Positions 1,970 through 37,812 of a stretch of DNA of 64,000 bases are shown one piece after another (the first letter of the stretch is position 1; each line of letters begins with the position of its first letter). Under the pieces are notes generated by a model. The model made no database searches and was not told the DNA's origin. It saw only the letters and a list, made by a program, of their open reading frames with translations. This DNA is from Tricharina praecox (Eukaryota). A program made the position numbers and the translations under genes. The stretch lies in assembly GCF_024521635.1 (NCBI RefSeq), contig NW_026250420.1:1-64000 (forward strand), in the 5' to 3' direction.

Positions 1970-2305
1970 CCCACCACCGAAGCAGAATACCCAGCCTGTT
2001 CGGAAGAGGTTAAAGAGGTCCAATGGTTTACATGTCTCCACAGAGATGTCACTGGCATGACAGTAGTACCTCTACTGTACACAGACTCACGGGGCACCCT
2101 ATCAACAATTTATTCGGGATTTTTGAGCACTAAGACCAAGCACACCGACATACAGTTTCACAACAGTCGCGACCTACACTCGAAAAGAATCGTGAATTTG
2201 TCACGAGTATCCACGGACGAGAACCTCGATGATCTTATGACCAAGGCGCTCGGCCCTGACATGCACACCTACTTCACCAACCGGATCTGTATGCGCACAC
2301 AATAA
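1970..2305 (+). pseudogene. Ty1/copia pol remnant, RNase H C-terminal part
   Basis: TTEAEY, LYTDSRG, KTKHTDIQFH and STDENLDDLMTKAL match the copia RNase H motifs (STTEAEY, xDN, KHIDI, NxADxxTK). Confidence 0.85.
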
Positions 2306-2520
2306 TTTTCCGATCTTTTTCTTTCCTTTTGGTTCTCATTGGAATTTCACTTCTCATGTACGGCGTGTTGCGAGCTGGTACTCTTTCCTAGCAGGTTTTT
2401 CCCACGAAGGTTTACTGCATAGGTTTTAACAAGGCTCGCGAGGATAAAACACATCTTTTCTTTTTTCATTTGTTTGTCTTCTTGCTGCTTATCTCCTTTC
2501 ATTGTACGGAACACAGCAAC

Positions 2521-2756
2521 AGGGGGAAGTGTCATAATCTCACGAACTTCCTTGTACCGCGTCACTTCCGCGGACCAGGTCATTAGCGATCACTCGCTAT
2601 GTCGAGGCACTTCCATTATCCCTTCTCACATGGAGGTGCCGAGCGGCTGCGTGGAGCCTCTATCCAAGGCATCCCCTGGCCTTCCTGTATATATACCTTT
2701 CCTTCTGTCGTGTCTGTTACTCAATACACTATCTCGCGATACCACTTTTCTTGATA
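2521..2756 (+). mobile_element. Polypurine tract plus copia 3' LTR (2530-2756)
   Basis: AGGGGGAAG immediately precedes TGTCATAATC. The LTR ends TTGATA, where the second copy has TTGACA. It lies downstream of the RNase H remnant. Confidence 0.75.
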
Positions 2757-4530: not shown

Positions 4531-6820
4531 AAAAAACGTGCCACGCTTTTCAGCCCTTACCCCAGCAAATATGACAGGATTTCCCACTATCGTGTGTTTA
4601 ATTGCGTCTAGTACCAGCAAAGCCGCGCCACAATCGTCGTCCAGTATCAGCCACGCCGCAGGCTCATGTTCGGCCCGTGCTCATACTATACTCATACGTC
4701 CCTCAGCCACTACAAGCACCGATAACATGCTTGGACCTTTTTCTCTTATGATTCATGTTGCCTTTTTTTTTTCTGCCCCTGTTAGCAGTAGACTACAGTC
4801 CGGCCACAGGCAGAGCACGTACATACACACTATCAATCGTGAGATGATACATTCCCGGCCCTGACTAGGCTACCTAAAAACAATGCGGAGACAGAATGCG
4901 GTAGGTGAGGTGCGGTGTCTAGATACGCGTGACGCGTTTAACTACCTTTGCGTGGCGACGAGGAAGGTGCCGACTTACGTCGGCGCGAGTCGCTGCCGAC
5001 GTTGCGTTGCCGAATCGGAGACGCTGGGCGCTGGAGGCGGCAGGTGCCAACAACGTGGAGGATAACTACCTACTCTAACTGCCGCACCCGAGACGCTGGT
5101 TGTATGTGCTCTACGGATTTAGCCCGCGCACCGGCCGCCCAATCGCCGACTCCCGACACACAAGCGCCGAGTGATAGAGTGACAGAGTAAGAGACTCAAG
5201 ACACTGAGACAGAGGAGTGCCGAAACGCCGCTTTACTTTACGCCCAGAATACCTTAGGTACGTCCAGACCCTGCGCCAATCGCGTCGGGACTCGGACGTT
5301 ATCACCGCTGTCATACCGATATAGTGGATTTGTACTTTACGGTATCGGAAAGATACATACCGTACTACCTCTATCAACAAGATGATTTTCCGGCAGGTAC
5401 TTTACGGTCGGCAGTGAGTGGCGTGACGGGCCTGGAGTCTGGACTTTGGACAAACGCATTCGCGCAAGGGGGAAAGTACCGTGAATACTCGGCTGATACT
5501 ACGGTATTCACCAAGCCAACCCACGGGAAAGCCAAGCACCTGGCGCACCTGGCGCACAGCTTGCAGACAAGACACCCGATCTTGACTGCGCGCGTTTGCT
5601 GCTAGACAGCCCTCCACTTCCCGGCTACACATGCGACTCCTCGCCGCGTTCTCCTAAGCGCACTCGGCGCTGACGCTCTCGCGCGTTATACCCAGTATTA
5701 CTAGCACCACATCCCCCACCACGCACCCGCAGCCGAGACATCCTACCATGCGATGCATACCTATGCCAGGTAGGCATTGCATCATCATCTTCTTCTTCTT
5801 CTCCCGTCTCAACCCAGCAGATCCACATTCCAGAACATCTCTTCACCCCTACAAAGTAGGTAAATCCGAGTAACTACGCCGTCAACATCCCGCACAGTGC
5901 ACACTGTTCCTGCCATGTACCAAGTACTTTAGAGTAAATAGGAGGAAGTGGCTTCCGCGGGAGATTGAGCACGAATCAGGGGTCAGCTGGGGTGGGGTTA
6001 ACTACTCTATATGTATGTAGATGGCGGGGGGCGGGCGGGGGGTGCTGGGGTGTGGCTTGTCGACGGCGACGGATCTGACACGCACATCGCATGCACATCG
6101 CACGCACGTCCTACACGATGCTACTAGTGGTAGATTGTTGTGGATACTAGATATTCTATTTCTGTACGGTTTGAAGATGCGGGCATGGGCAGGGGCACGG
6201 GTTGAGACTCGAGACTCGAGACGCGGTGGAGTATCGTTTCTGGAATCTAGACCGCCGCTAGAGGATGTAATAGTGCCCTGCGGCTATATTTTCCGGTTGC
6301 TCGATTTATTTCAGGCAATCAATTCGCAGTGTCAGCAGAGAGCACTTCTTTCACGTGCGGCATAGCGATGGAGGTAATGGATGATCGATACTGCGGCTAC
6401 GGTGGTAGGTCTCGACTCCCACCGTCTCAAAGAGTTTGGCCATAGGTGGGGTCCGCGCGTCCCATAGATTGACGGGTGGGTGTCATCTGACGTGGTAGGA
6501 GGTATAGTAAAGCATGAGTGGCCAGCAGACCGTGCTGGGCAGGATAAAAAGTCCCGGGCGGAGCGTGAGCTGTCGATTCACTGATATGGACAATTAGATC
6601 GTTCCCCCTGGTACCTACTACGTAGAACGAACGAGATTCATATTGACAGAGATAGTTATCGATCCATCATGGAAGTCAATTCACAAACACACATACACAC
6701 ACACACACGCAAGTAATCAACAAAAACAACCAAAGAAAACCCTGCTCCCAAAATATAATCATGCATCCATATCCATAACCCATCTCACAGCCGGCGTGAC
6801 CGAACCGAGTTTCACACCGT

Positions 6821-8546
6821 TTATAGCGTGTACGTAAAGTCTGGGTGATTCTCAATGTGCTTGCCCTCTTTCTGTTTCTTGTTCATCGTCTTGAAGTAGA
6901 CGGACATTCCCGCAACAGCGAGGAGGATGAAGAACTGGCAGGCGACGGACGCCCAGAGACCCGGGAGGTACTTTGGCGCATCGACGGTTCGGAAGATGGT
7001 GGAAGCGAAGATACCGCCGATGGCGCCGAAGCCGACCTGCAGAGCCGAGCCGACGCTACGCTTCGAGTTCATGCGGATGTTGTTGCTCTGGTAGGACAGG
7101 ATGGCAGGGACATTACCCTGTGCGCCGGCCAGACCCAGGAAGGTTCCGAAGTAGCGGGCACCCTCGTTTGTGGAATAGGCGGTGGTCAGAAGGCCGACGA
7201 TGCAGATGCATGCCTGCATCGCGATGACAGGTCCGCGCATGCGCATCTTGTCGGCGAGAACGGCAAAGAGGAATCCGACGATACAGGCGAAGACGTAGGG
7301 GGGTGCCGACATCAGCTGGGCCTTCTCGGCTGTCCAGCCCATTCCCTCGAAGATGATGGGAAGGAAGTATCCGAAGGCGTACGAAGGCATGGTGGAGCAC
7401 ATGAAGAGCACGGCACTGAAACACCCATATATTAGCACGGAGATGCATCCGTAGGGAGGAGAAAGAAAACGTACAAGACCCAAAGCTTGAAATCGGACAG
7501 ATGCGTTCCAACTTTGCCCCAGGTGATGGGATCGGCGGCCGAGTCGTCACGATCGCGGTCGATTCTGGCCTTGATCATCTCGACGTCGGCGGCGGTAAGG
7601 AACTGGCCGTTGCGCTTCTCGATGACCTTGTCGGGGAAGTCGATGATGGTGACGTATGCCAGAAGAGCGAGAAGACAAGTGATGACACCTTCGATGATGA
7701 AGATCCACCGCCAACCACGGATGCCAGCGATACCCTCCATCTTCATGAGACCGAAGGCCAGGATGGCCGAGAAGCCACCGACGACGACGGAGAACAGGTA
7801 GAATCCAGCCATTCTGAAGCGCCTTGTCAGCCCCCGTATCTCCCGATACACTCAGAGGATTTCCAAACGTACCGTTTTTGCACCTCGAACCGGCAGTACC
7901 AGCAGCTGACAAGGTAGACACAACCAGGGAAGAAACCGGCCTCGAAGAAACCGAGAATCGTACGACACACAACCAAGGTCCTCCAATCCTGAACGAAGCC
8001 CATTCCGATCATGACGGCACCCCACGCCAGCGCAATGGAACCGAGCCACTTTGCCGCGCCCACCCTCCGAAGAACAAGATTGCTGGGAAGTTCAAAGATG
8101 AAGTACTGTCGAGGAGAGTCCAATCAGCTTTTTTTCTTTCTGTTTTTGCGATTCTCCAGGGAAGCTTCTTACCGGTACGAAAAACACCAACAGGGCAATG
8201 CTGTATCGGGCGCCAATCTGCAAATCAAGGTCCACTCTCATACCCGCAATGTTGGCGTTCGACATGTTGGTACGATCGATCAGGGCCACCGAGTACAAGC
8301 CACCCAAGATTGGGAGCAAGCGCCAATCGACCTTGTGGCTGTATGCGACTTTCCGTCAGCTATCCATCCATTAATCCATCCATCCGCCGCCACCGGCCGC
8401 CGTAGCCCGTCGACGACTCGAAACACAATTTTTTTTGTTTCTTACATGATCCTTCTCTCGTACTCCAGGTCTATTCCGGACTCCCGGTCCGAAGAGCTGG
8501 ACTTTGCCATGTTGACGTGCTCGACGGTTTCCTTCTCGACCGACAT
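6821..8546 (-). CDS. MFS transporter, ACS (Tna1/Dal5-like) family, about 477 aa, 5 exons (8546-8446, 8338-8173, 8105-7873, 7813-7475, 7415-6821)
   Basis: Motifs KVDWRLLP, IDRTNMSNANIAG, ELPSN, EAGFFPG, GWRWIFIIEG and SAPPY. Four GT-AG introns join the ORF pieces in frame (1434 nt). Confidence 0.93.
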
Positions 8547-9300: not shown

Positions 9301-12300
9301 GAGTAGGGTAGGGTACCCGTCGGCATGCCTACCAGCCCATTGCTTTTTCCAGGCGCGCACCACCGGCCAATCGCTACTGACCGATATTCAACGTTGACGA
9401 CCCAACGTCCGCACATACGATACGATATACCGGTCGAGGACAGACTTCACGTCAACCGATATCACGAAGACAAATCCAAAAAAAGAAAACACAGAAAACA
9501 AATCCCGCGCGACAATGCAGATTGCTCTCGACCTGGCATCCGATCCAATGGGCCTCCACCCACCCAGCCCGAACGCAATCAATCAATCACGCAGATGAAA
9601 GCGAAAGTGCAGCCGAGAAACAATCTGATGCCCGTGATCGTGGGATGGATGGATGCCTTCCCACCACCACCACCGTGAACGTGACGGCGCCCTTCCCCGC
9701 CTCGTGATCAAAAGGATTGCCAACCGGCTCTTTTTCTTCGGAGTCGGTGCAGCTAACCTTACGTGGATACCGTATCTGCCAGTCCCCCCCAGATTTTCCC
9801 AGCCCCATGGGAAAGTCTGCGGATACCAAGGTAGGTATGATATGTAGCAAGGTAATATGTAGTGTAGTGCCAGACGGTGCCATACCGTGGTTATATTTTG
9901 GCAGCCCACGTACCGTACATATCTTCAAAGCGTGGTATGATAGGTAAGTACTTAGGTACCGTATAGTACCACAGATCGGAAAAGGCGAAGAATTCCACTT
10001 CGAGCCCCATTGGGTTTTGACAAGCAAGCAGGCAAGCATCCAGCCTCGGCTCCAGATCTATTCCCCGGTGAGGAAAGATATCGAATCAAATCTCTTTCTG
10101 CCTCAAACCTGAGGCAATACCTACCATACTTACATACCCGTTTGAACTGTGAACTGAACCCGTCCATGCCCAACTGCAAATTGTCATTGTCATGTCACTC
10201 AACGTTTGACAGGAACTAGAATAGAGTACTGTCAAGTAGAGTAGAGAGCTGGAACTTCGATCTCCAGTGTGTGTGATCCCTCTCCCCCTTTTTCCTGCTT
10301 CTTTTTCGGGAGAGGGTTTCTTTTCGAAACGATCCTCGGGTTTGCGACCGGGAATACCTAATAAACATGGCACTCTACTCTACTTTTACGATATTGCTGG
10401 CGCCACAGGTCCATGATCACTGGCTGGCTGTCAAGTTCCAGCTGGTAAGACCGTGAGACAGAAATCCGGGGTAGCCTACCGTAAGCTCTACTATTAGTAC
10501 CTACTACCACTACTTACTCTATGTGGATATCTACAGTTCGGGCCCACGCCATTTCCCTCTGAACCTCCCCGCCACGCCCGCACTTTTCCTACCCACATAC
10601 CATGTACATACCGTAGCTCGCCAGTACCAAGCGATACATACGGTACTTTCTACTTACTTGTATCTACCGGCCACTGCAGTAGACTCTAAAGTACAGTAGT
10701 CAACTCCATAGGCATGAGCGATCGAGACGCCACCAGCTCGCATGACGCCAAAAAAGAAGGAAAGGAAGTGGGAAAAAGGAAAGCCCTAAGCAACAGCCGC
10801 GGTACTTTTCATGCACCTCCGACCACAGCCAAGCCTGCTCGATCGATTTTAAGGTCAGGCACCAACCACTGATAGTCGCAGACGGGTGCTGTGGGTCCGA
10901 GTGCCACACTCTACAACTCCACAACTCCACAACTCCACAGCTCCATTCTCCATTCTCCACGCTCCACACACACGCATGGCTGGAAGCTTCCATTCGATAT
11001 CAGTATGTATGTTTGTATACAGTCATCATGTGTCGATCTTGGTTTGGCACTCGACCACCGGTCCAAGCATGTATCCCTAGCCCGTGACTGACTACATAGA
11101 GTGCACACTCACCTGTGTCGAAACCAGCGCCAGGGCACGCACAGCACCATCGTTATTCCGGGTACACCGAAGTCCCCTCGATTCTTTTTTCCCGTCCGTT
11201 AGCATCCGACGTTTTCAAAAGCGCCTGCGAGCACATCCAACCAACACCCTCCCCCCTCCCCCAGGCGAAACCCAACCAAACCTCCACCTCCCTCTGACAA
11301 TCCGATGATCCAGCTAGGTATCTGTGGTCATCGATTATTGGCATCATCATCATGATGATGCACAACCCGCCCCTCTACATACTCCAGCTGACGCTACCGG
11401 TAACTAGACGTTCACCACACCACACCACACCACACGGTAGCCCCGACCGGCCGTTGCGGTTATCCCAGTCTACATACATAGTTCCGTCAACGGCAGCGCC
11501 TCCCTCGGTCTACGGTGTGCGACAGGTGATGCTGGTGGTGATTGGCCAGGCGGCGCTTTCGAGGCGGGGATAGCCGTGCCAAGTTCTTGGTACTGGTGCT
11601 GGTGGTGATGGGTGGTGCTGGTGATATTTATCCCAGGCCGTACGTTTGGTGGTAGATATGTACCTTCTACAACGAGGTTGGGCGAGAGTTGAAAGTTGCG
11701 CGACGCCTACACCAATCCAGCCTCTCGCGATATGTTCAGCTCCATTACCATAGTAGAGGTACATATAGGTAAGCATTCACAACGGGACCTATATACCTGT
11801 GTGTCTATTGTTCGTCACGCCAAAGTGGCCGGCGACAAAGTCTGCAACCCCTCCAGCGACGGACGGGCTTCGCCAAAGTCCTGTACATACACACGCTAGT
11901 CGACTCGCGTTGCTCGGTTAGTCCGATGCGGGGAAACTCGGCTGGAAGGTTGGAACACCACTGTGAGGGAAAAACCTGGGGCCCCGGATCCAGTCACGTT
12001 GCTAGGGAAGCTAGTGTTAGCGTAGCGTGAGACTCGCGCTTGCGATGTCCCAAACCACTGAGCCAAGTGGACGAGCGGAACTCGATGCGGCGGCGCTGGG
12101 GGAAGAGGAAAGTTGGAACACATGGTGCCTCGGTGTCGGAACGGAGAGGAGCCAGTCGCCGCAAGCTACCTAGAGAACAGTGCGAAAGACCACCAAGATC
12201 TCGCCTCGTCGCTGCGCCTGATGACGAGGTGATTCGTGGGTCGTGGGTCGCCAGCCGATCGTCTGCCGATCGCGGCAAAGTCGACGGCATGTCGTTTTCC

Positions 12301-21329: not shown

Positions 21330-21989
21330 ATGCGATGATACCTACATTGTAATCAATGAAGAAAGAGAGTTGAGTTTCCAATAGACCATCCCTTTTGATG
21401 CCCGATCGTCGCCAATTCCTATAACTATCTGGTCAACCGTAGCCCACAGAGTCGTCTACCACCGTAAAGGAGAGGGCTTTCGAGTACGTACAAGGTGCAA
21501 CTCTCCGATTTCTCCGAACATACCCACCGCGTGCTTTTGCTGCGGTCGAAGCAGAACACTACGCGGTCGTCGACGACAAAAGACTCCGTATTCTGCGCGT
21601 GATACGTGATAAACTCGTAAAACCTCAGCTATTCCACGCTGGTATTCGGAACCAAGACGATTGTGCTGAATGACACTTCACCGCACCGCAAACATCCTCA
21701 TTATTCTGGTGACCCGAATAATTTACAGTTGTATTTCTTATAGTATTTGAGAGTCCCCTTCAGTACTCTATCCCATCAGTCGCACATCCAGGGATGATAT
21801 ATCGCAAACCCGCGTACCTCGAAATTAGAGATAGAGCTGCAGGGGATCATAAAGTTTGACACCGGTACATACCTTAAGTGGCCCATCAGATGCTTCTCCA
21901 CGGGGCGCCTGTACTCCAATGACAGCGATCGTTTTGTTGGGGTTGATCGGTGCACTAGGTGCAGTAAACGACCTATTCCTGCTATCCAT
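21330..21989 (-). pseudogene. Paralogue C of the tandem family (stops and frameshifts)
   Basis: MDSRNR..INPNK, FMIPCSSISNFEV, FVDDRVVF and VVDDSVG segments. Confidence 0.6.
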
Positions 21990-28182: not shown

Positions 28183-28525
28183 ATGGTGCTCCAGGAAATC
28201 GACGCGGACTACATCGGCCGCGACCAGCTCGTAAAGCTGCTCAAGAGGAAGTTTGGGAGTAATTATTCGTTCCACGTATGTTCTCCCCGCGCCGCACGCC
28301 GTGACTGGTCGAGGAGGAGCGGCGAAAGAGAGAGAGAGAGACGCCTGGCACTGGCACTGACACTGGACGTGTTCGCGAACAGCTGAGCGCTGGCCATTGG
28401 GTCGTTGATGTGCCCGATTATATCTCCGAGGTATGTACCCAGGTCCTGGCCTGTCCTGATGGTGGCGGTGGTGTTGACAGACGTCGTGATAGTACGAGAT
28501 CGAGTGTGCGCAGGAGGAGGGGTAG
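28183..28525 (+). CDS. 57-aa microprotein, 3 exons (28183-28275, 28383-28430, 28493-28525)
   Basis: ACAATGG start, two GTATGT donors, CTGAC and TTGAC branch points, phase-0 joins giving MVLQEIDADYIGRDQLVKLLKRKFGSNYSFHLSAGHWVVDVPDYISEYEIECAQEEG. An alternative acceptor at 28480 would give ..SETS*. Confidence 0.75.
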
Positions 28526-29200
28526 CGGAGCGGAGCTGGGGCTTGTGGGGTGGTGGAGGGGTACGGTAGCGATTTGCGAGTTCGCGAACTCGCGAACTCG
28601 CAAGGCTGTGGGGGCGGAAGGAAGGAAACTTGGCGATCGATGTTGTTGCTGTTGATGAGCGGACGGAAGGACTTCATTTGCTACATACTCCATCTACCTA
28701 TCCTCTGGCCTGGCGGCGGCGAGGGCGGAGTATTTTGCCTTTCTTATGCACTCACATATCGGAATTCCTCTCTCGTATCGTATGTAACGGCAGCATTTTA
28801 CTGGGCTGGCTAGCCTTTTTTCTTCTCGCTTTGGCTGCGCTGGGCTGTGATTTTCGCTGTGTGTGCGACGTGATTTGCTGTAGATTTGCTGCTTGATTTG
28901 CTGCTGCTGCCGGGGGCGGTGTGCGCTGTGCATGGTTTGGTGGTGGTGGTGGTGGTGGTGGTGGTAGTCGGTCGCTTGCTCCGCACCGCAGCTGCAATGC
29001 AGCAGCATGGCCGCAGGTTTCATCAAGGAGAGTGAGAGACAGTGAGAGACAGAGAGAGAGAGAGAGAGACCACGTTGGCGCCGGCTGATTGATTGATTGA
29101 TTGAATGATGATATAAGACGTCCGATCCGCCGCGCAGCCACCGTAGTTTCATATTCCGTTCCGCTCCGTTTCTGCTTCCTCGGCCATCCTATCCATCAGC

Positions 29201-31241
29201 ATGACTGCCACAGCGACTGCGAACGCGACCGCTCGTCCGAATGTTACCACCACCACCACCGCCACAGTGCCAACCGACGTGCCGACGGGCCTGCAGCACC
29301 ACAACCCGCTCGTCGACGATGTCGCCGCGCGCAACGGTCGCCTCACCGCCGATCGCGACCGCCTCTTTGCGCCAGAGCAGATCTCGATCGATACGCTCGA
29401 CGTCAACCTGAGCGCCGAGGGGGAGCAGTGCGAAGGTTAGTCGCGGTCGCTCGTGCGGGGGGATGGCGGGGGAGGGGGGGGGTGGGGGGGGGGGGGGGGC
29501 GCGCGAACAGAACAGCCAGTTGACCTAGCTGCAGTGAAGCGAACATGGACGGACGCTGCCGAGTTCAGTGCGCAATGTCTGCAGCAGCCCACTCACGACA
29601 GTCGCTACTACATCCTGAAGCCGTTCCGGCCGAAGGTGATATCGCGGTCGCCGCTGCACATTACGGAGGAGGCGGCGCGGCAGCTGCTCGCGACGCACGA
29701 GGTCATGCCGAGTTTTCTCGACCACCTACATGCGTACGGTCGGCGCAAGAACCGCGAGCAGGATGGATGCTTCGGTGGTGGACGCTATCTCCTCGGGTTC
29801 TCCGAGGAGTCAAAGGTTACCCAGCACGAGATCGCGTATACGGTTAAGTTTGGCGTCAATAATGGCCGCAAGGAGGAGACCAGCCCGTATCTGTACAGCA
29901 TCCGTCAGACAAGTGTGTATCAGAAGTTTTGCTACGATGAGCGGAAGTCCGTGTGGATCCTGGTGCAGCCGTCGGACGCGGTGCAGCGGCGGCTGTACGC
30001 GGCGGCGCCAAAGGAGGTGGTCCTGGCTGGCGGGAACCCGCTCAAGATGCATCTGCTGTTCTTCTCTGCGGCGAGCGAGGGGTGGCGGGACTACTACAAC
30101 CACCTTGAAAAGATCTTCTACGAGACGACGGCGGCGGCCGTCAACTACACCGTGCAGCGGAGCAACGAGAAGTACACGCCGCAGGGCATGCAGGGCCCGC
30201 AGGTCCAGCACTTTGAGGGCACGCGCGGCGATCCGCTCGAGAAGTTCCAGGTGGATTTCCAGGATGTGCAGGATCTGCAGCGGCTCGAGGAGCTGCTCCG
30301 CCGCGTCAAGACTGCGATCGAGGTCAACTCCGACTCGATCCGCAGTCTCAAGGCTTTGAACAACAAGCTGCGGGAGCTGTCCTCTGCGACGACAGGCGGG
30401 ATGACGCTCGCCGCGTGGAGCGAAGTTGACATCGAGGCGTCGCAGCAACTCGCGATCCTCGAGAGCCACAAACGCAACTTCGAGTCGCTGCTGCAGAACG
30501 TGCACGGCCGCTCGCAGCTGCTCTACAACGTCCTCGACTTCAAGAACGCGCTCACAGTCTCGCACCACTCCCAACGCGCGGTCGATATCCGCGCCCTCCA
30601 GGCAAACGAACAGACTATGATGACGATGCTGAACGAGATGTCGATGCGCGACGCCATCGGCGTGCGCATCCTGACGCTGCTGGCGACGCTGTACGTGCCC
30701 GCCTCCTTCGTGGCAGTAAGTGATCCCCCGTTCCCCATCCACCTCCTCACCCTCAAAGCCCGGGGAGCCAACTGATCCGCTAGATTCCACTCAGACATTT
30801 CTCGACGCCGGCGTCGTAACATTCGACGAGACGCGCAGCACCAAGGCGGGCATCGACTTCAGCCGGATGCGGGTGTCACGGGAGACGACTGTGTTCTACC
30901 TGGTATTCACCACGCTGCTGATGGCGATTACCTACGGCTGCTGGTGGCTGTGGCAGCGCACCGCCACCGGTCAGGTCGAGAAGAAACTCTCCATCACCCG
31001 CGCGAACTCTATGGAGCCCGAGAAGGGGCTGCTTCGCAGCCCCACCGCCGGCACTGCGGGAAGTAATCCCATGAGACAGCAGAGGAGACTGGGAAGTCTG
31101 CTCCCCATCTCGCCGCAAGGTACGCACCATCATGGTGCACCGCCGCCGATGACGCCCGTGCCGATGACCCCTATGTCACCGACGTCCCCGATGTCGCCAA
31201 TGTCGCCAATGTCGACTAAGTCGAGGAGTACGTGGGCTTGA
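29201..31241 (+). CDS. Fungal CorA-like membrane protein, about 628 aa, 3 exons (29201-29435, 29511-30715, 30795-31241)
   Basis: SIRQTSVYQKF..WILVQP, long helical stalk, and two C-terminal hydrophobic helices (ILTLLATLYVPASFVATFL; FYLVFTTLLMAITYGCWWLW). Introns keep the frame (1887 nt). Confidence 0.85.
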
Positions 31242-31951
31242 TTTTTGGGCTTGATTTTTGCGTTGAGTGTTTTTGCTTTTGATTTTGATTTTTGGGAATG
31301 GGAGTTTGGGGGCATTTATTGGCGTTTGGGGATCAAAATGTAATGGAAACGAAGGAATGAATCATGAACTGCTATGCAGAGGATTACTCATGTTCCGAAC
31401 AAGTACCTGCTATGTACCTGAAGTACTCTACAGCGAATAGCCGGCCATTCCAGCAGGAACGTGATCATCATGGCCAATGGCATGTACTATCCATAGCTGC
31501 AAGAATTGGCAGGTTAGTGGGCCTGATATGCACAGGTATGTACCATGTACTCTACTTACTGCCCGCAACCCACTACCTACATACTTGCCGTACTTCATAT
31601 GTACAAAGTACTTGGTTACTGTCCACTCTTACTCGAACGTATCATCCTTCATCAACGGGCATCTACTCCGTCCCAGATAACGTAGACCATCCAAGCCAAC
31701 CGATGCTCACGAATCTCAGCTGCACATGCTTGAAGAAAGTTGTCCAACACCACACCCGCATCGACGCTAGACCTATTAATGCAGGTCGTAGCACCCATCG
31801 CAGCCACGGGCTCCCCCGCACTCAGCCCAATCGAACCCTTGGGCGGGCGGGCGGGCGTGCGTGCGTAGATAGAGTAAGTAAGTAAGTAAGCATCCCGCGC
31901 TCACCTCTTACCTCCACCGATCAATGCACCCGTCCCCCCTTACGCTCCACG

Positions 31952-34659
31952 ATGAGCAGCCGCGCCGCCTACGACGACCTCGCGCGGACCCTGGACCGGC
32001 TTGAGATCGTGAACTGCGACAAGAAGCCGTTCATTCCTGCGGACGGCTTCGACGGCGCCGTGACGCGGTCGTTCCTATCCACGGTCGTTTCCGACCTCCT
32101 CCCCTTCTCCGACGGCGGTGCCAGTGCACACGTCCACCTCCAGCAGCTGTACGAGTCGTACCGCAAGGTCATCGCCATCCTCGTCATGATGCGGTATGAG
32201 CAAAGCTTCGTCCGCTTCTGGGAGACCAACACGTGTGATCGCGACCTGCCGCTGGATCAGGAGCGGCTCGCGGAGATTGATGGGGACCTCTGGTGGCCCA
32301 AGTGGAATGGCCTGCAGTATAAGTTCCTCGCGAGGATGTACTGTGAGGAGACAGAGTCGCAGCAGTGGTCGGACGATTATGTCCTCCCCATCCTCGAGAA
32401 GGTCTATAGGTCCAGAGGAGCGTTCTCGGAGGTCTACAAGATCCACATTCATCCGCACTATGACCGACTGAATTTTCGGGGACATCATGAGGTGGGCTGG
32501 GGGGGACACTCTGCACATCTGGAGCACGGGCTGACACTCTTCCCTAGCCACACTGGTACGCGCTGAAGCAACTCAAGACCTCAGCGGACGCCAAAGTCAA
32601 CGAGCGCAAACTGCGAGAATGGCAAGACGAAGTTGCGGCAAACGCGCTGGTGCGCAAGCAGCAACACAACAACTACGCATACAGCAGCATCCTGCCGCTG
32701 CTGCACTCGCACACGTATGGCAAGCAGTGCAATCTCGTCTTTCCACTCGCAAACTACAACCTGCGCGAGTTCTATGCGAAGGAGCCAATGCCCCCCTCCA
32801 GTCTCCACCGCTTCAGGTTTGTAGAACAGATCTCGAGGCTCGTACCAGCGCTCGGATTGATACATCAGGGAGAGATTGATTCTACCTGCCAGTGGCAGTG
32901 GATCGGCCTGCATCGCGATTTGAAACCAGGTTTGCTCCCGGGAGACGAGTGGAGTGCGGAGCTAGGCTGGGCTGGGCTGGCGGCGCTAACTAACGCACCG
33001 CAGATAACATCCTCGTAGTGTGCGGCATGACGCCGCGCTTCATGATCTCTGACCTTGGGCTCATGAAGTTCCGCAAGGTGAAGTCGGGGTCGCGCGAGTA
33101 CTCCGGCGAGGAGTGGAAGCTCGGTGTGTCCGCGTACAAGGCGCCGGAGTGCGACGTCAAGGGCAAGCGCGTGGGGCGCGGCGCCGACATCTGGAGCTTG
33201 GGGTGCATACTCGCCGAGGCGATCACGTGGTGCGTCTGCGGCCTCCAGGGCATCCGCGAGTTCCAGCGCCGAAGGTCGACCGAGGACTCGTACGGCGACT
33301 CGTCGGACGTGTTTTTTTGCAAGAGCGGCTCGCCGGGCGCGAAGGAGGTGCCGCGCTTGAAGACCGAGGTGCTGGATTGGTTCGCAGAGGTGAAGAAGGC
33401 CGCTGGCGAAGAGGACCGGTTGGTCGCTGAGACGCTGGCGCTGGTCGAGCTGATGCTGAAGGAGAACGACCGGGGCGCGAAGGGCCGCCCCAGCGCGGAA
33501 AAGATCGATTGCGCGTTCTACACGATCCTGAAGCAGGAGGCTTCGAAGCAGGCGTGGCCACTGTCGATTTCGGAGCCGGCGTACTACTTCAAGAATCTCG
33601 ACCGGCGCACGCACGCGCTGCCACGCGACATCCTGCCGTTCTCGTACTCGCGCTCCACCAGCTTGATGACGCCGACGACCCCCGGGCCCATGCCGTTCAG
33701 TCCGAATTTTCCGAGTTTTCCGAGGTCGGGCGGCCTGGCGAGCCCCGCTGGTGGTGCTGGTGCCGGGAAGCGCAGGAGAAGCGAGGACGACTCGTTCGTG
33801 CCGCCGTCGCTGCCGAATTCCTCGACTGGCAGCACGGTACGGCCCGTCAAGCGCAAGCGCGAGGTTTCCGCATTCGCACATCTGAAACGGCTGGATACGG
33901 TGAGCTCCCCCGGCCCGCATACGTGCACTCCACGGCTCTAACCACACCCGCAGATGTTCCTAATCGACGACTTCGTCTCGGAGACTCCCTGGACCCGAAT
34001 CCGCACAACCCTTCAAAAGCTCTCCTCGATCGCGACGCAATGGGACCAAGACGGCGTAGACATTGCGTTCATCAACAGTTCGTCCTACGCCTCGTGCCTA
34101 TCCACGCCGTCGGACGTGCTCTCAGCGCTCGACAAGACTGGGTACACAGCGACAAGCACGAGCACGCTCTCGTTCCGCCTGGACATGCTCCTCTCGTCGT
34201 ACATCAACCTGTACAAGCGCGATGAGTTCACGAAGCCGCTCAACATGATCATCATCACCAGCGGCGACTTCCTGGCGCACGACGAGTTTGAGAAGGTTGT
34301 CATGACGTGGGCGAAACAGCTCGACGAGATCTATGCGCCCAAAAGTCAGCTAAGCCTGCAGTTCGTCCTCGTCGGCTGCAAGGGCGAGAATAGGAGGAGA
34401 TTCGAGGACCTCGATGATGAGCTGTATAAGGAGTATGGCGTTAGGTATGCCCCCCACCTCTTTCTGCTTTGCTTCGGCTGTGGCGAGCTGCGGCGGCTGA
34501 TAGAAATACAGAGATATGGTCGACGCCACCTGCTACGACCCAAACGAGCCGGATAGTCAGGAGGTCTTTGAGAAGATCTTGTGTGGAGGCATGATTGCCA
34601 CGTACAATCGTGTGCAGGACGAGACTTCGGATCTGTCCATGATGGCGGTGGACCTGTGA
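31952..34659 (+). CDS. Ser/Thr protein kinase fused to a C-terminal vWA-like domain, about 818 aa, 5 exons (31952-32491, 32548-32929, 33004-33899, 33954-34444, 34512-34659)
   Basis: RGAFSEVYK, YALK, helix-C Glu, HRDLKPDNIL, SDLG, APE, DIWSLGC. Then FLIDD, DQDGVDIAFIN, KPLNMIIIT, QFVLVG, LDD and RDMVD of fungal vWA proteins. Spliced length 2457 nt. Confidence 0.9.
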
Positions 34660-34979
34660 ACAGTAGTGACAGTGGTGACAATAGTAGGGATGTTGGGTGT
34701 AATGGAGTATTTCACGGATGTGAATGATGTGTGACTATGATCTTATATGTCGAAGTATAATACCATACAAACCCCATTTCTTGGCTGGATGAGGCTGGAT
34801 GAGGCAGGATTTTGCGGAGAGAGTGAGGGAGGTGGTGGAGTGATCTCACGCAGTGACGCAGAGGCTATCGATTTTTGCACTCGAAGTTTGGAGATACCGC
34901 GGCCGACGTGAACCGCCCACTCTACTCTATATCTACAGAAACCACCCGCACTCCAAACATATCCAACCCCGCCCCGCCC

Positions 34980-37812
34980 CTAAGACTTCTCACACTCCCT
35001 CCACCTCCTCAACAGCACTTGATACACCTCCTCCTCCCCCCTCTCACTCGCCCAATCCAGCAACGGTTTCGCCGCCGGAAACGCTATCTTATCGACCCCG
35101 GCGCCCCTTTGTACCAGCATTCTAACCACTTTGTCATGCCCGCCCGCCGCCGCCCATGATAACGGCCCCCACCCGGCCCTATCCACGACCTCGACATCCG
35201 CACCAGCGTCCAGTAACGCGGCGACGACCTTCGCTCGCCCCGCCTGCGCCGCCCACAGCAGCGCAGTCCAGCCGTCGATATCCATGCTGTCCACCGCCGC
35301 GCCGCGGGAGAGCAGGAAGCGCACGCAGTCTGCGTGCCCGAAGTGTGCGGCTTGTGACAGCGGGGGTTTGCCGTGCGTGTCGGCCGCGTTGATGTCCGGC
35401 GGGTGCGTGGAGGATAGGAGCTGGACGATCGACAGGTGCCCGGCCCGCCCGGCCCAGGAGAGGGGCGTGCGCGTGTTGGGGGGGGATGGGGAGGGGGAGA
35501 GGAGGGACTGCACCGTGGGGAGGTGTCCAAGGACTGCGGCGCTGCAGAGGGGGTAAAGACAGAGGGAGCGGTAGATATAGTATTCGCGCGTGGGCAGGGT
35601 TAGCGTGCGGAAATAGGTGGATACACAGCCGGGGCGGTGGAGGAAGGTTGTGAGGGCGCGAGTGATGGTGTTGGGGGAAGAGGTGGTGGTGGTGGTGTTG
35701 GGGGAAGAGGTGGGAAATGATAGGTGGTGCTGCAGGTTCTGCGCTGCATATTCGAGCAGTGGGTCTTCTTCCATGATCCGCAGGTTCTGTGCGTGCGAAT
35801 TCTCGTGCGCGGCTAGAATCGAGAAGGCGTCGAACGAGAGGTACGTTATACACCCTGCGGCCAGCAGCATATCGCCGCCATACTCGTTGAGGACCTGTTT
35901 CCGGAGGAGATATTCCTGCACCGTGTAGTGCACCAGCCGCACTGTGCCGCCGGTCTCGTCGATCTCGACAAGGCCCGCGCAGACGTCCGCAAGAGTCGAG
36001 GGATTGGCCAGATCCTCGTCGGGATCGAGCTCGAACTCGCCGGGTTCCAGTGCTACTGCGATGCACAGCTCGGCGATGGAGAGGGTGCGGCAGGCTTTGG
36101 TCAGCCAGGTCAGGATTCTCATAGCCAGTCCGATTTCGAAGCGGCCTTGACTACGGAGGAGCGTCATTGCGCGGTTGTAGGTGGGGTCCAGTGGGCGGTC
36201 CTCGCCGTCACCGGTGACAGTCGAGTCCTGGAGTCTTTGCAGTTCCTGATGCACTTGCCGCACTGTTGTGAGCTGACACAGGTGGTCGATATGGAATTGC
36301 ACAAGGAGGAACCTGCCATCATCAGTGGCCGTCTACTCGCGGGCTCAAACACATCGCACCTACATCCCCTTCGCAGATTCCACGAGTGAGTCGATGATCT
36401 CAGATTCATATTTACTCCCCCTGATCAATTTCTGCGCCCTGCCACTATCGTTGATGCGAGCCTGCACATATCCGCGCAGGTCCTCGGCGCGCGCAGAGAG
36501 CTCCACCTTCTGTGCTTCAGCAAGCACTTCCGCTATGTCCTCGGGGTACGGACGGGAGGTGGCGAGTATCCGAACGCCATCTCTCGCCATACGATTGAGT
36601 AGCTCCAGTACGTCCCCCCTCCTCTGCGGCTCCAGTACGTCCCCCCTCCTCTGCGGCTCCAGTACGTCCCCCCTCCTCTGCGGCTCGCATTCATCCAATG
36701 CATCGGCTACGATGTAGACCACACCCGGGAAGAGCTGTTTGATCTCTAGCAGCACGGTGTACACCTTTTCTAGCCCCGGTCGTGTGCGGGTGTTGTAGAG
36801 CTCTTCGAGTGCTGAAGGGAACTGAGGCAGCTGCCGCTGGATCAATTGCTTCACAATCGAGGAGAGGACGGTGAGAGCCCTTGAGTCTGGTGACTTGTAG
36901 TCGAAGTAGATGTATGCCAATCCGGAATCCGGGAAGGCGGTGAGGAGGTGGTCTATTACCACTGATCTGCCGTAGACCATGGTAGTATCAGCCATCCGAC
37001 CCTTCAGTGAACAAGGCAGTGACTTCTAACGCAAGAAATGTCTTCCCAGCTCCAGCTATTCATCATCAGCTATTCATCATCAGCGCATGCCTTCGCCCGC
37101 CAAGAGAGAAAAAGAACCCACGAATACCCTCCCCCACAATACTCCCCCGCCCTCGGCATCTCTCCACCTCAGAAACTCTGGACTCTCCAGCAACCACGCC
37201 CCACTCCCATCCGTCCTCCGTTCCCTGACATCGGCATGCCTCCTCTTCGCCGCATCGCCAGTACTGATCCATTCCAGCACCTTTTCCCTTCTCTCACATT
37301 CCTCGCCGATCTCCAGCGCCGCCAGGGAAAGATCCGTATTCAACGCATACTCGCGCAACGCCTGCGAGAACTTACTGCCTTGTCATCAGCGGCGTCTTCG
37401 CCTCCGCAGCATAAAGCGCAACCCACAATTGATCCACGGCCAGCGCCGTAGCCGCCAGAGCACACACGTTCCTGACCCTGACGAAGAAGCCCCTCGTATC
37501 CTTTTCCTTGAACGGCCACCGCCACTTCTCCCTTGCGCCTCGTGCGCCGCCCAATTCCTCGCGCACCCCCGCCAGCTCCTTCCAGAAATCCTGCAGCACG
37601 CCCTCGAGCCCGGCGATTCCTCGGCTTCCGTCGGAGGGGGATGAGGCGAGCGAGTGCAGAGACGTGAGGACAGAGGATAGTGTCTCCAGCTCGCTGGTGA
37701 GCAGCGCCAGTGTGGAGGGCGCGCTGGAAACGCTGTGGATGTACGCGGCTATTGCGCCCGTGATCTGCAGGATCGAGGCTATCGAGGCGATGAGTCCGAT
37801 TGGTTCTGCCAT
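34980..37812 (-). CDS. NLR-like protein: HeLo-like/SesA-type N-terminus, NACHT, winged helix, ankyrin repeats; 5 exons (37812-37427, 37374-37122, 37055-37031, 36966-36364, 36312-34980); apparent 1-nt deletion
   Basis: MAEPIGLIASIAS..WPFKE, GSGAWLL, PGAGKT micro-exon, ADALDEC, ATSR, GMFLL, LVHYTVQEY, and ankyrin motifs TPLSWA/TALLWAA. Spliced length is 2600 nt, one short of a multiple of 3. Confidence 0.88.
36603..36683. repeat. Perfect 27-bp triplication (EPQRRGDVL x3) in the NACHT exon
   Basis: CTCCAGTACGTCCCCCCTCCTCTGCGG x3. Confidence 0.95.

Follow-up and report, generated by a model that had tools for sequence, protein, structure and literature searches.

Co-inherited genes for a microprotein, a GMN-less protein of predicted CorA fold and a kinase fusion, next to a frame-broken NLR gene, in Tricharina praecox

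A stretch of 64 kb from Tricharina praecox (Pezizomycetes), here called the window, carries three co-oriented genes that encode a 57-amino-acid microprotein, a CorA-like protein with two transmembrane (TM) segments, and a fusion of a protein kinase with a probable vWA-like domain. This trio converges on a gene of the nucleotide-binding oligomerization domain-like receptor (NLR) type. All coordinates given below are window positions unless a locus is named. The initial annotation of this DNA had proposed that the four genes are linked components of one conflict system. That linkage held for the trio, which was co-inherited in four out of four related loci, but not for the NLR gene, which was found in none of these loci within the flanks examined and, in the one splice form seen, has a broken reading frame in the window. 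The reading that we tentatively favor, at somewhat less than an even chance, is that the three genes form a unit, with a CorA-fold protein lacking the GMN motif under the control of the kinase fusion and the microprotein as a cofactor.

Metagenome contigs were scanned once with an alignment of the CorA-like protein, and 18 loci were recovered. The four closest loci represent two lineages, one made up of L001 and L002 (96.6-98% alike) and the other of L003 and L004 (about 99% alike). Identity of the CorA-like protein to that of the window was about 85% in L001/L002 and about 60% in L003/L004, and for the trio the amino-acid identities were about 85% and about 50-67%, respectively. The order and orientation of the microprotein, CorA-like and kinase/vWA-like genes were kept in all four of these loci, each of which has a CorA-like homologue of at least 58% identity. 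For every trio exon tested between the window and L001, the ratio of nonsynonymous to synonymous substitution rates (dN/dS) was 0.03-0.14, at a synonymous divergence of 0.6-1.4. These pairwise values indicate that all three genes are under purifying selection, and they gave no sign of diversifying selection in the trio.

The DNA around the trio differed between lineages. Neither the 64-kb window nor L003/L004 had any open reading frame (ORF) in common with the flanks of L001 and L002 (9 kb upstream and 4-6.5 kb downstream). The DNA before the trio in L003/L004 likewise gave no match to the window, and in every comparison the upstream conservation ended just before the microprotein gene. Downstream of the kinase gene, L003 and L004 carry a Yippee-like ORF followed by homologues of the window SHNi-TPR gene, the next gene, and the gene for DNA polymerase epsilon subunit B. 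This Yippee/Mis18-like ORF (L003:15439-16200, minus strand) separates the trio from the SHNi-TPR gene and occupies the same place in L004. The slot 3' of the kinase gene is thus variable, being filled by the NLR gene in the window, by the Yippee/Mis18-like ORF in L003/L004, and by unrelated DNA in L001/L002. Within the flanks examined, no homologue of the NLR was detected in any of the four related loci, even at expectation values (E) up to 10. Elsewhere, the CorA-like homologue P0009 and the kinase homologue P0021 are each recorded on a 13,451-bp Logan contig, which is weak evidence of linkage.

Two further features of these loci were recorded. Upstream of the trio, L002 contains an ORF with WD40 repeats (2016-2741, minus strand) and a 611-amino-acid ORF without a Pfam match (4854-6686, minus strand); no NACHT domain was seen in the upstream ORFs of L002 that were scanned. 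In L003, positions 21643-21945 are homologous to window positions 6824-7126 and follow directly after the homologue of window DNA near 41.9 kb, a gene order that points to rearrangement between the lineages.

Gene models were read from the DNA and then compared with contigs of two public runs (X1 and X2). These contigs represent spliced RNA, since GT..AG joints are present in them. All four genes were found to be transcribed and spliced, and every modelled intron of the three plus-strand genes was recovered in both runs. The microprotein, CorA-like and kinase transcripts are each on a contig of their own. The gene anatomy given in the initial annotation is right: three co-oriented genes converge on the NLR gene with 320 bp between stop codons (34659 is the last position of the kinase gene stop, and the NLR stop starts at 34980), and the genes downstream of the block, SHNi-TPR, DNA polymerase epsilon subunit B and ORC4, are housekeeping genes. 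On the upstream side, from 18.3 to 28.1 kb, no ORF of at least 110 amino acids was recognizable by Pfam.

The microprotein gene (28183-28525, plus strand) has three exons at 28183-28275, 28383-28430 and 28493-28525 (stop included) and encodes 57 amino acids, as the initial annotation had stated; its joints are seen in RNA contigs of both runs. When the window was aligned with L001-L004, the three exons and their GT/AG boundaries were kept and the introns varied in length and sequence. Insofar as the exons and splice borders are conserved, the introns are variable and dN/dS is about 0.06 in comparison with L001, the microprotein is a real coding gene. In a search that covered proteins of 36-118 amino acids, its sole database match was a read-through gene call of 59 amino acids from a related contig.

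The CorA-like gene (29201-31241, plus strand) has three exons (29201-29435, 29535-30715 and 30795-31241) whose joints are present in the RNA contigs, and its 620-amino-acid product is identical (100%) to P0001, a hypothetical protein in the T. praecox annotation. Intron 2 has an alternative 3' splice site (30784-30794, plus strand). Run X2 joins 30715 to 30795, which gives the full-length 620-amino-acid protein; run X1 joins 30715 to 30784, which adds 11 nucleotides and, by our own reading of the frame, leads to a frame shift and a stop before the second TM segment. The structure of the protein was predicted with AlphaFold2 on 15 homologues, with a mean predicted local distance difference test (pLDDT) score of 68.5. 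The model shows very long helices besides an alpha/beta domain, and its C-terminus is a helical hairpin with the two TM segments. The top Foldseek matches to this model were chains of Thermotoga CorA (E 7e-10, probability 1.00, 424-476 aligned columns), which bore out the initial label of a CorA-like protein with two TM segments.

At the motif position at the end of the first TM segment, P0001 has LDAG and not GMN. A profile search with the protein found 2,114 representatives at E of at most 1e-3 (50% clustering), which belong to the fungal family PF26616. Of 149 family representatives examined, 119 had a recognizable motif at this position, and GMN was kept in three of these. The PF26616 assignment came from precomputed annotation, and the same model gave no match in a local Pfam scan. 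No Pfam CorA match was obtained at E of at most 0.1 for P0001, P0004, P0015 or P0018, and there was no NCBIfam match to the CorA-like protein. The structural model thus places the protein as a predicted CorA-fold member of a large, mostly GMN-less fungal family. It is not to be classed as a Mg2+ channel. Compared with the characterized CorA/MIT channels (Thermotoga maritima CorA; PDB 2iub, 4i0u and 3jcf), the window protein has in its model the same N-terminal alpha/beta domain, very long stalk helix and C-terminal TM hairpin; it differs from them in its identity of only about 10-12%, in having LDAG in place of GMN, and in belonging to PF26616.

The kinase/vWA-like gene (31952-34659, plus strand) has five exons at 31952-32491, 32548-32929, 33004-33899, 33954-34444 and 34512-34659, with all four joints on one RNA contig per run. 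With all five exons on a single contig, the kinase and the C-terminal domain are truly fused at the level of mRNA. The encoded protein comprises an N-terminal helical region, the kinase, a conserved basic and Ser-rich linker, and a C-terminal alpha/beta domain. Pfam recognized Pkinase at E 2.5e-7 in the window exon and at E 2.2e-17 in the homologue P0020 (796 amino acids), which is also fused. The kinase is probably active, because the motifs YALK, HRDLKPDN, DLG and APE are kept in all orthologues in the alignment; the glycine loop is, by our reading, partly degenerate. Ahead of the last domain, the linker contains conserved Ser-rich stretches and basic stretches of the KRRRSED type.

The C-terminal domain (exons 4-5, 33954-34659, plus strand) is probably vWA-like. 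In the ESM Atlas, both the window exon and the C-terminus of P0020 lie beside VWA, VWA_2 and vWA-TerF-like clusters at 0.88-0.92, values that serve as leads only. The domain had no Pfam match at E up to 10, no NCBIfam match and no PDB profile match. Its AlphaFold2 model was weak (pLDDT 55.7) and displayed beta-alpha alternation; with this weak model, Foldseek found nothing below E 1e-3 and returned generic alpha/beta folds only. The metal ion-dependent adhesion site (MIDAS) appears degenerate. By our own alignment of the motifs, the DxSxS position reads DDFVS (DDYV..S in L003/L004), and TSG stands for TDG. Of the proposed kinase-vWA fusion, then, the joining of the two parts on one mRNA stood, but the vWA label has its sole source in language-model leads. 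The T. praecox kinase/vWA-like protein itself was not among the 9 matches obtained from proteins of 523-2000 amino acids, while the CorA-like protein P0001 was found, so the public annotation may split or miss this gene. The homologues P0021 and P0022 end at the exon 3 boundary because an intron was left unspliced in the gene calls.

Of the remaining 14 loci, two are short contigs. Among the other twelve records, ten could be aligned with L018, at 92.6-97.7% within the aligned parts, and therefore belong to one species; L016 gave no alignment, and L011, L013 and L016 are too short to show the kinase side. Seven loci of this distant fungus (L006-L010, L017 and L018; about 97% alike) have a CorA-like gene of 30% identity in head-to-head arrangement with a tandem kinase gene, which encodes a kinase and a second kinase-like domain. 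The pre-kinase region of this distant protein matches the window kinase at E 9e-7, placing the two in the same clade. From these sequences, the distant pair is suggestive but not decisive, as one independent instance of a CorA-like gene beside such a kinase gene. The population variants L012 and L014, compared with L018 at position 10211, have wholly different DNA on the upstream side of a breakpoint that falls within the CorA-like gene. Adjoining the tandem kinase gene, L018:2237-5019 (minus strand) holds another kinase ORF, after which come TPR_10/TPR_12 repeats, and this kinase-rich neighborhood itself adjoins FAN1-like and RNA polymerase Rpb1 genes.

In the favored three-gene unit, the CorA-fold protein would form an oligomeric membrane pore. 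With the loss of the Mg2+-selective GMN filter, this pore would conduct or sense not Mg2+ but something else. The kinase fusion, a soluble protein, would dock through its MIDAS-poor vWA-like domain and phosphorylate either the cytoplasmic domain of the pore or its own Ser-rich linker, so that the pore is switched. The acidic 57-amino-acid protein would be a small cofactor or inhibitor, and the NLR gene would be a lineage-specific insertion into the variable downstream slot, frame-broken in this strain. Physical or regulatory contact among the three proteins is presumed in this scheme, as are the ion or substrate and the role, which may be in stress or ion signaling or in regulated cell death. 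A complex prediction pairing the cytoplasmic part of P0001 (residues 35-470) with the vWA-like exon gave a score of 0.00 against a mark of 0.34, with alignments unused, and counts neither for nor against binding.

The chief alternative, which we regard as a realistic possibility at about one chance in three, is that the genes are independent neighbors: unrelated, lineage-restricted genes held together by microsynteny within Pyronemataceae, with the distant pairing a chance meeting of two expanded families. Several points favor it and weigh against a functional unit. Microsynteny can explain much of the linkage, because synteny in L003/L004 continues into housekeeping genes, reaching DNA polymerase epsilon subunit B by way of SHNi-TPR and the gene after it. 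Both related lineages are relatives from within the family, and the comparison spans three lineages and one distant species only. Chance adjacency in accessory regions is not negligible, since the kinase clade and the CorA-like family (2,114 representatives) are both large. The distant pairing is a single instance in which a second kinase-like domain stands in place of vWA and no microprotein was found, and the variants L012 and L014 are without the kinase side and the first approximately 77 matched CorA-like residues. Kinases moreover cluster at that locus in any case, with two of them inside 5 kb. The vWA assignment is in addition unconfirmed by Pfam, PDB or fold match. Against independent neighbors stand the intact trio of L001/L002 between two unrelated flanks, the upstream break just before the microprotein gene in every comparison, and the membership of the distant kinase in the same clade, N-terminal extension included.

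Two other explanations fare worse. A plain divalent-metal transporter of the CorA/Alr1 type, with irrelevant neighbors, would account for the full-length structural match to Thermotoga CorA and the two C-terminal TM helices; it is nonetheless quite unlikely given LDAG instead of GMN, the rarity of GMN among motif-bearing family members, and the lack of Pfam CorA (at E of at most 0.1) and NCBIfam matches. The four-gene immune or allorecognition system of the initial annotation, with the NLR as sensor, is agreeable with the adjacency and convergence of the NLR gene, the transcription of all four genes, the fusion of a related kinase to a NACHT domain in the Monosporascus protein P0023, and the listing of Pkinase among fungal NLR domains in the excerpts available of PMC12258605. 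This proposal is very improbable in view of the lack of an NLR homologue within the examined flanks of the four related loci; in L003/L004 the NLR position is taken by the Yippee-like ORF and then housekeeping genes. In addition, the NLR mRNA as observed loses its frame at the P-loop, with tandem repeats that are perfect and hence recent, and the trio lacks a diversifying signal. The NLR was accordingly dropped as a component.

A narrower version of the kinase-regulated unit holds that the kinase/vWA-like protein is a sensor-switch that opens the GMN-less CorA-fold pore, leading to ion collapse or cell death, with the acidic 57-amino-acid protein as inhibitor or antidote; the whole would be a fungal counterpart of the type III CRISPR CorA effectors. 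We consider this version unlikely. The proposal of an immune or cell-death role for the trio is indirect, drawn by analogy from the fusion of this kinase clade to NACHT in P0023, from the CRISPR effectors, and from bacterial kinase/PP2C/vWA triads. The purifying selection on the trio weighs against such a role. In type III CRISPR, according to excerpts of PMC10600005 and PMC12255297, a CorA-family membrane effector is activated by SAM-AMP. As far as those excerpts describe it, the shared element is one of concept only, a CorA-fold membrane effector under a separately encoded signaling enzyme; the CRISPR system is prokaryotic and uses a nucleotide second messenger from Cas10, whereas the neighbor in the window is a protein kinase. 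No cas-like or nucleotide-signaling gene was seen among the window ORFs scanned with Pfam. PADLOC models gave no match for P0001, and PADLOC and NCBIfam searches together returned generic kinase and ankyrin matches only.

Triads of vWA, kinase and phosphatase genes of the TerY type occur in bacteria. Linked kinase, PP2C and stand-alone vWA genes are described for bacterial conflict neighborhoods in the portions available of PMC7159879, and they lend the favored three-gene unit a precedent. To the extent covered there, such triads have in common with the window a Ser/Thr kinase tied to a vWA domain, and the Atlas leads for the window domain are of the TerF/copine type; they differ from the window, where a single eukaryotic protein contains both the kinase and the vWA-like part, the block lacks a PP2C gene, and the MIDAS appears degenerate.

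Among fungi, NLR and effector genes are paired in nwd2/het-S and in gasdermin/protease clusters. The idea of a regulator gene beside a gene for a membrane-targeting effector is shared with pairs of the nwd2/het-S type. The window block is unlike them in that the NLR is not kept beside the trio (none of the four loci), the conserved candidate regulator is the kinase, and neither a common amyloid motif nor a protease stands out. General background on fungal NLR/effector pairs is given in the excerpts available of PMC12881547. In the library searched, no paper was found linking CorA-like proteins to fungal NLRs, immunity or cell death, and none on PF26616. The main text of PMC9815663 does not mention CorA, vWA or transmembrane. 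Text matches to "CorA" in the available portions of PMC12881547 and PMC12258605, which concern fungal NLRs and cell death, turned out to be the word "coral" and were discarded.

PF26616 is a large fungal family without an assigned function, and the conserved, expressed kinase fusion and the unannotated microprotein offer a testable handle on the function of GMN-less CorA-fold proteins. If pores gated by a kinase proved to be true, they would be a new type of effector for fungal signaling or cell-death biology. The locus also illustrates that an adjoining NLR in one genome is a poor guide, the NLR here being a recent, frame-broken arrival.

The NLR gene (34980-37812, minus strand) is of the signal transduction ATPase with numerous domains (STAND) class. 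From Pfam and RNA joints, it encodes a PigL_N-like N-terminus, an NPHP3_N/NACHT domain, a winged helix and ankyrin repeats. Pfam matches were NPHP3_N at E 1.7e-13, a weak NACHT, GPIID_WHD at 1.2e-7 and Ank_2 at 5e-46. The match of the N-terminus to PigL_N (PF17111) was below threshold, with E 0.0044 and 16.9 bits against a cut-off of 27.2. Of the HeLo-like/NACHT/ankyrin architecture proposed in the initial annotation, the NPHP3_N/NACHT, winged-helix and ankyrin parts were upheld by Pfam, and for the HeLo-like part there is the sub-threshold PigL_N match only. RNA joints define minus-strand introns at 37426-37375, 37121-37070, 37030-36967 and 36363-36313, two of the four being seen in run X1 only.

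When spliced in silico in the only form seen, the NLR mRNA contains a 317-amino-acid N-terminal ORF and a 654-amino-acid NACHT-ankyrin ORF in different frames. The former runs into the wrong frame and stops; the latter begins just before GAGKT and spans the NACHT domain, winged helix and ankyrin repeats. No continuous ORF links the N-terminal domain to the Walker A motif in this splice form. The frame break is not an assembly error, because the RNA contigs have no indel relative to the window. A run of five G (G5; 37131-37135, minus strand), placed shortly before the donor of exon 2, is, by our own reading of the DNA, the likely site of the frame shift, and by the same reading one extra G together with the downstream acceptor would yield the canonical context of Walker A. 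Dropping one copy of a 14-bp repeat was also tried as a repair and was ruled out by our frame arithmetic. That perfect 14-bp tandem repeat (2.3 copies; 37053-37084, minus strand) lies at the border of the intron and the P-loop exon, with the acceptor used in X1 and in-frame stops ahead of GAGKT. A perfect, in-frame 27-bp tandem repeat (3.1 copies; 36602-36686, minus strand) was found by repeat scan directly after the Walker B region of NACHT. It is likely that the NLR is a recently disrupted, lineage-specific gene, and a minor in-frame isoform may exist.

A second 27-bp tandem repeat (1.9 copies, 96% matches) lies at 35662-35713, in the stretch of the NLR gene that separates the winged helix from the ankyrin repeats. 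In both runs, a contig tracks the NLR gene to window positions 37137 and 35704 and then continues with 255 letters of unlike sequence. This tail may come from the transcript of an NLR paralogue or from chimeric assembly; one of the two breaks is right beside the G run.

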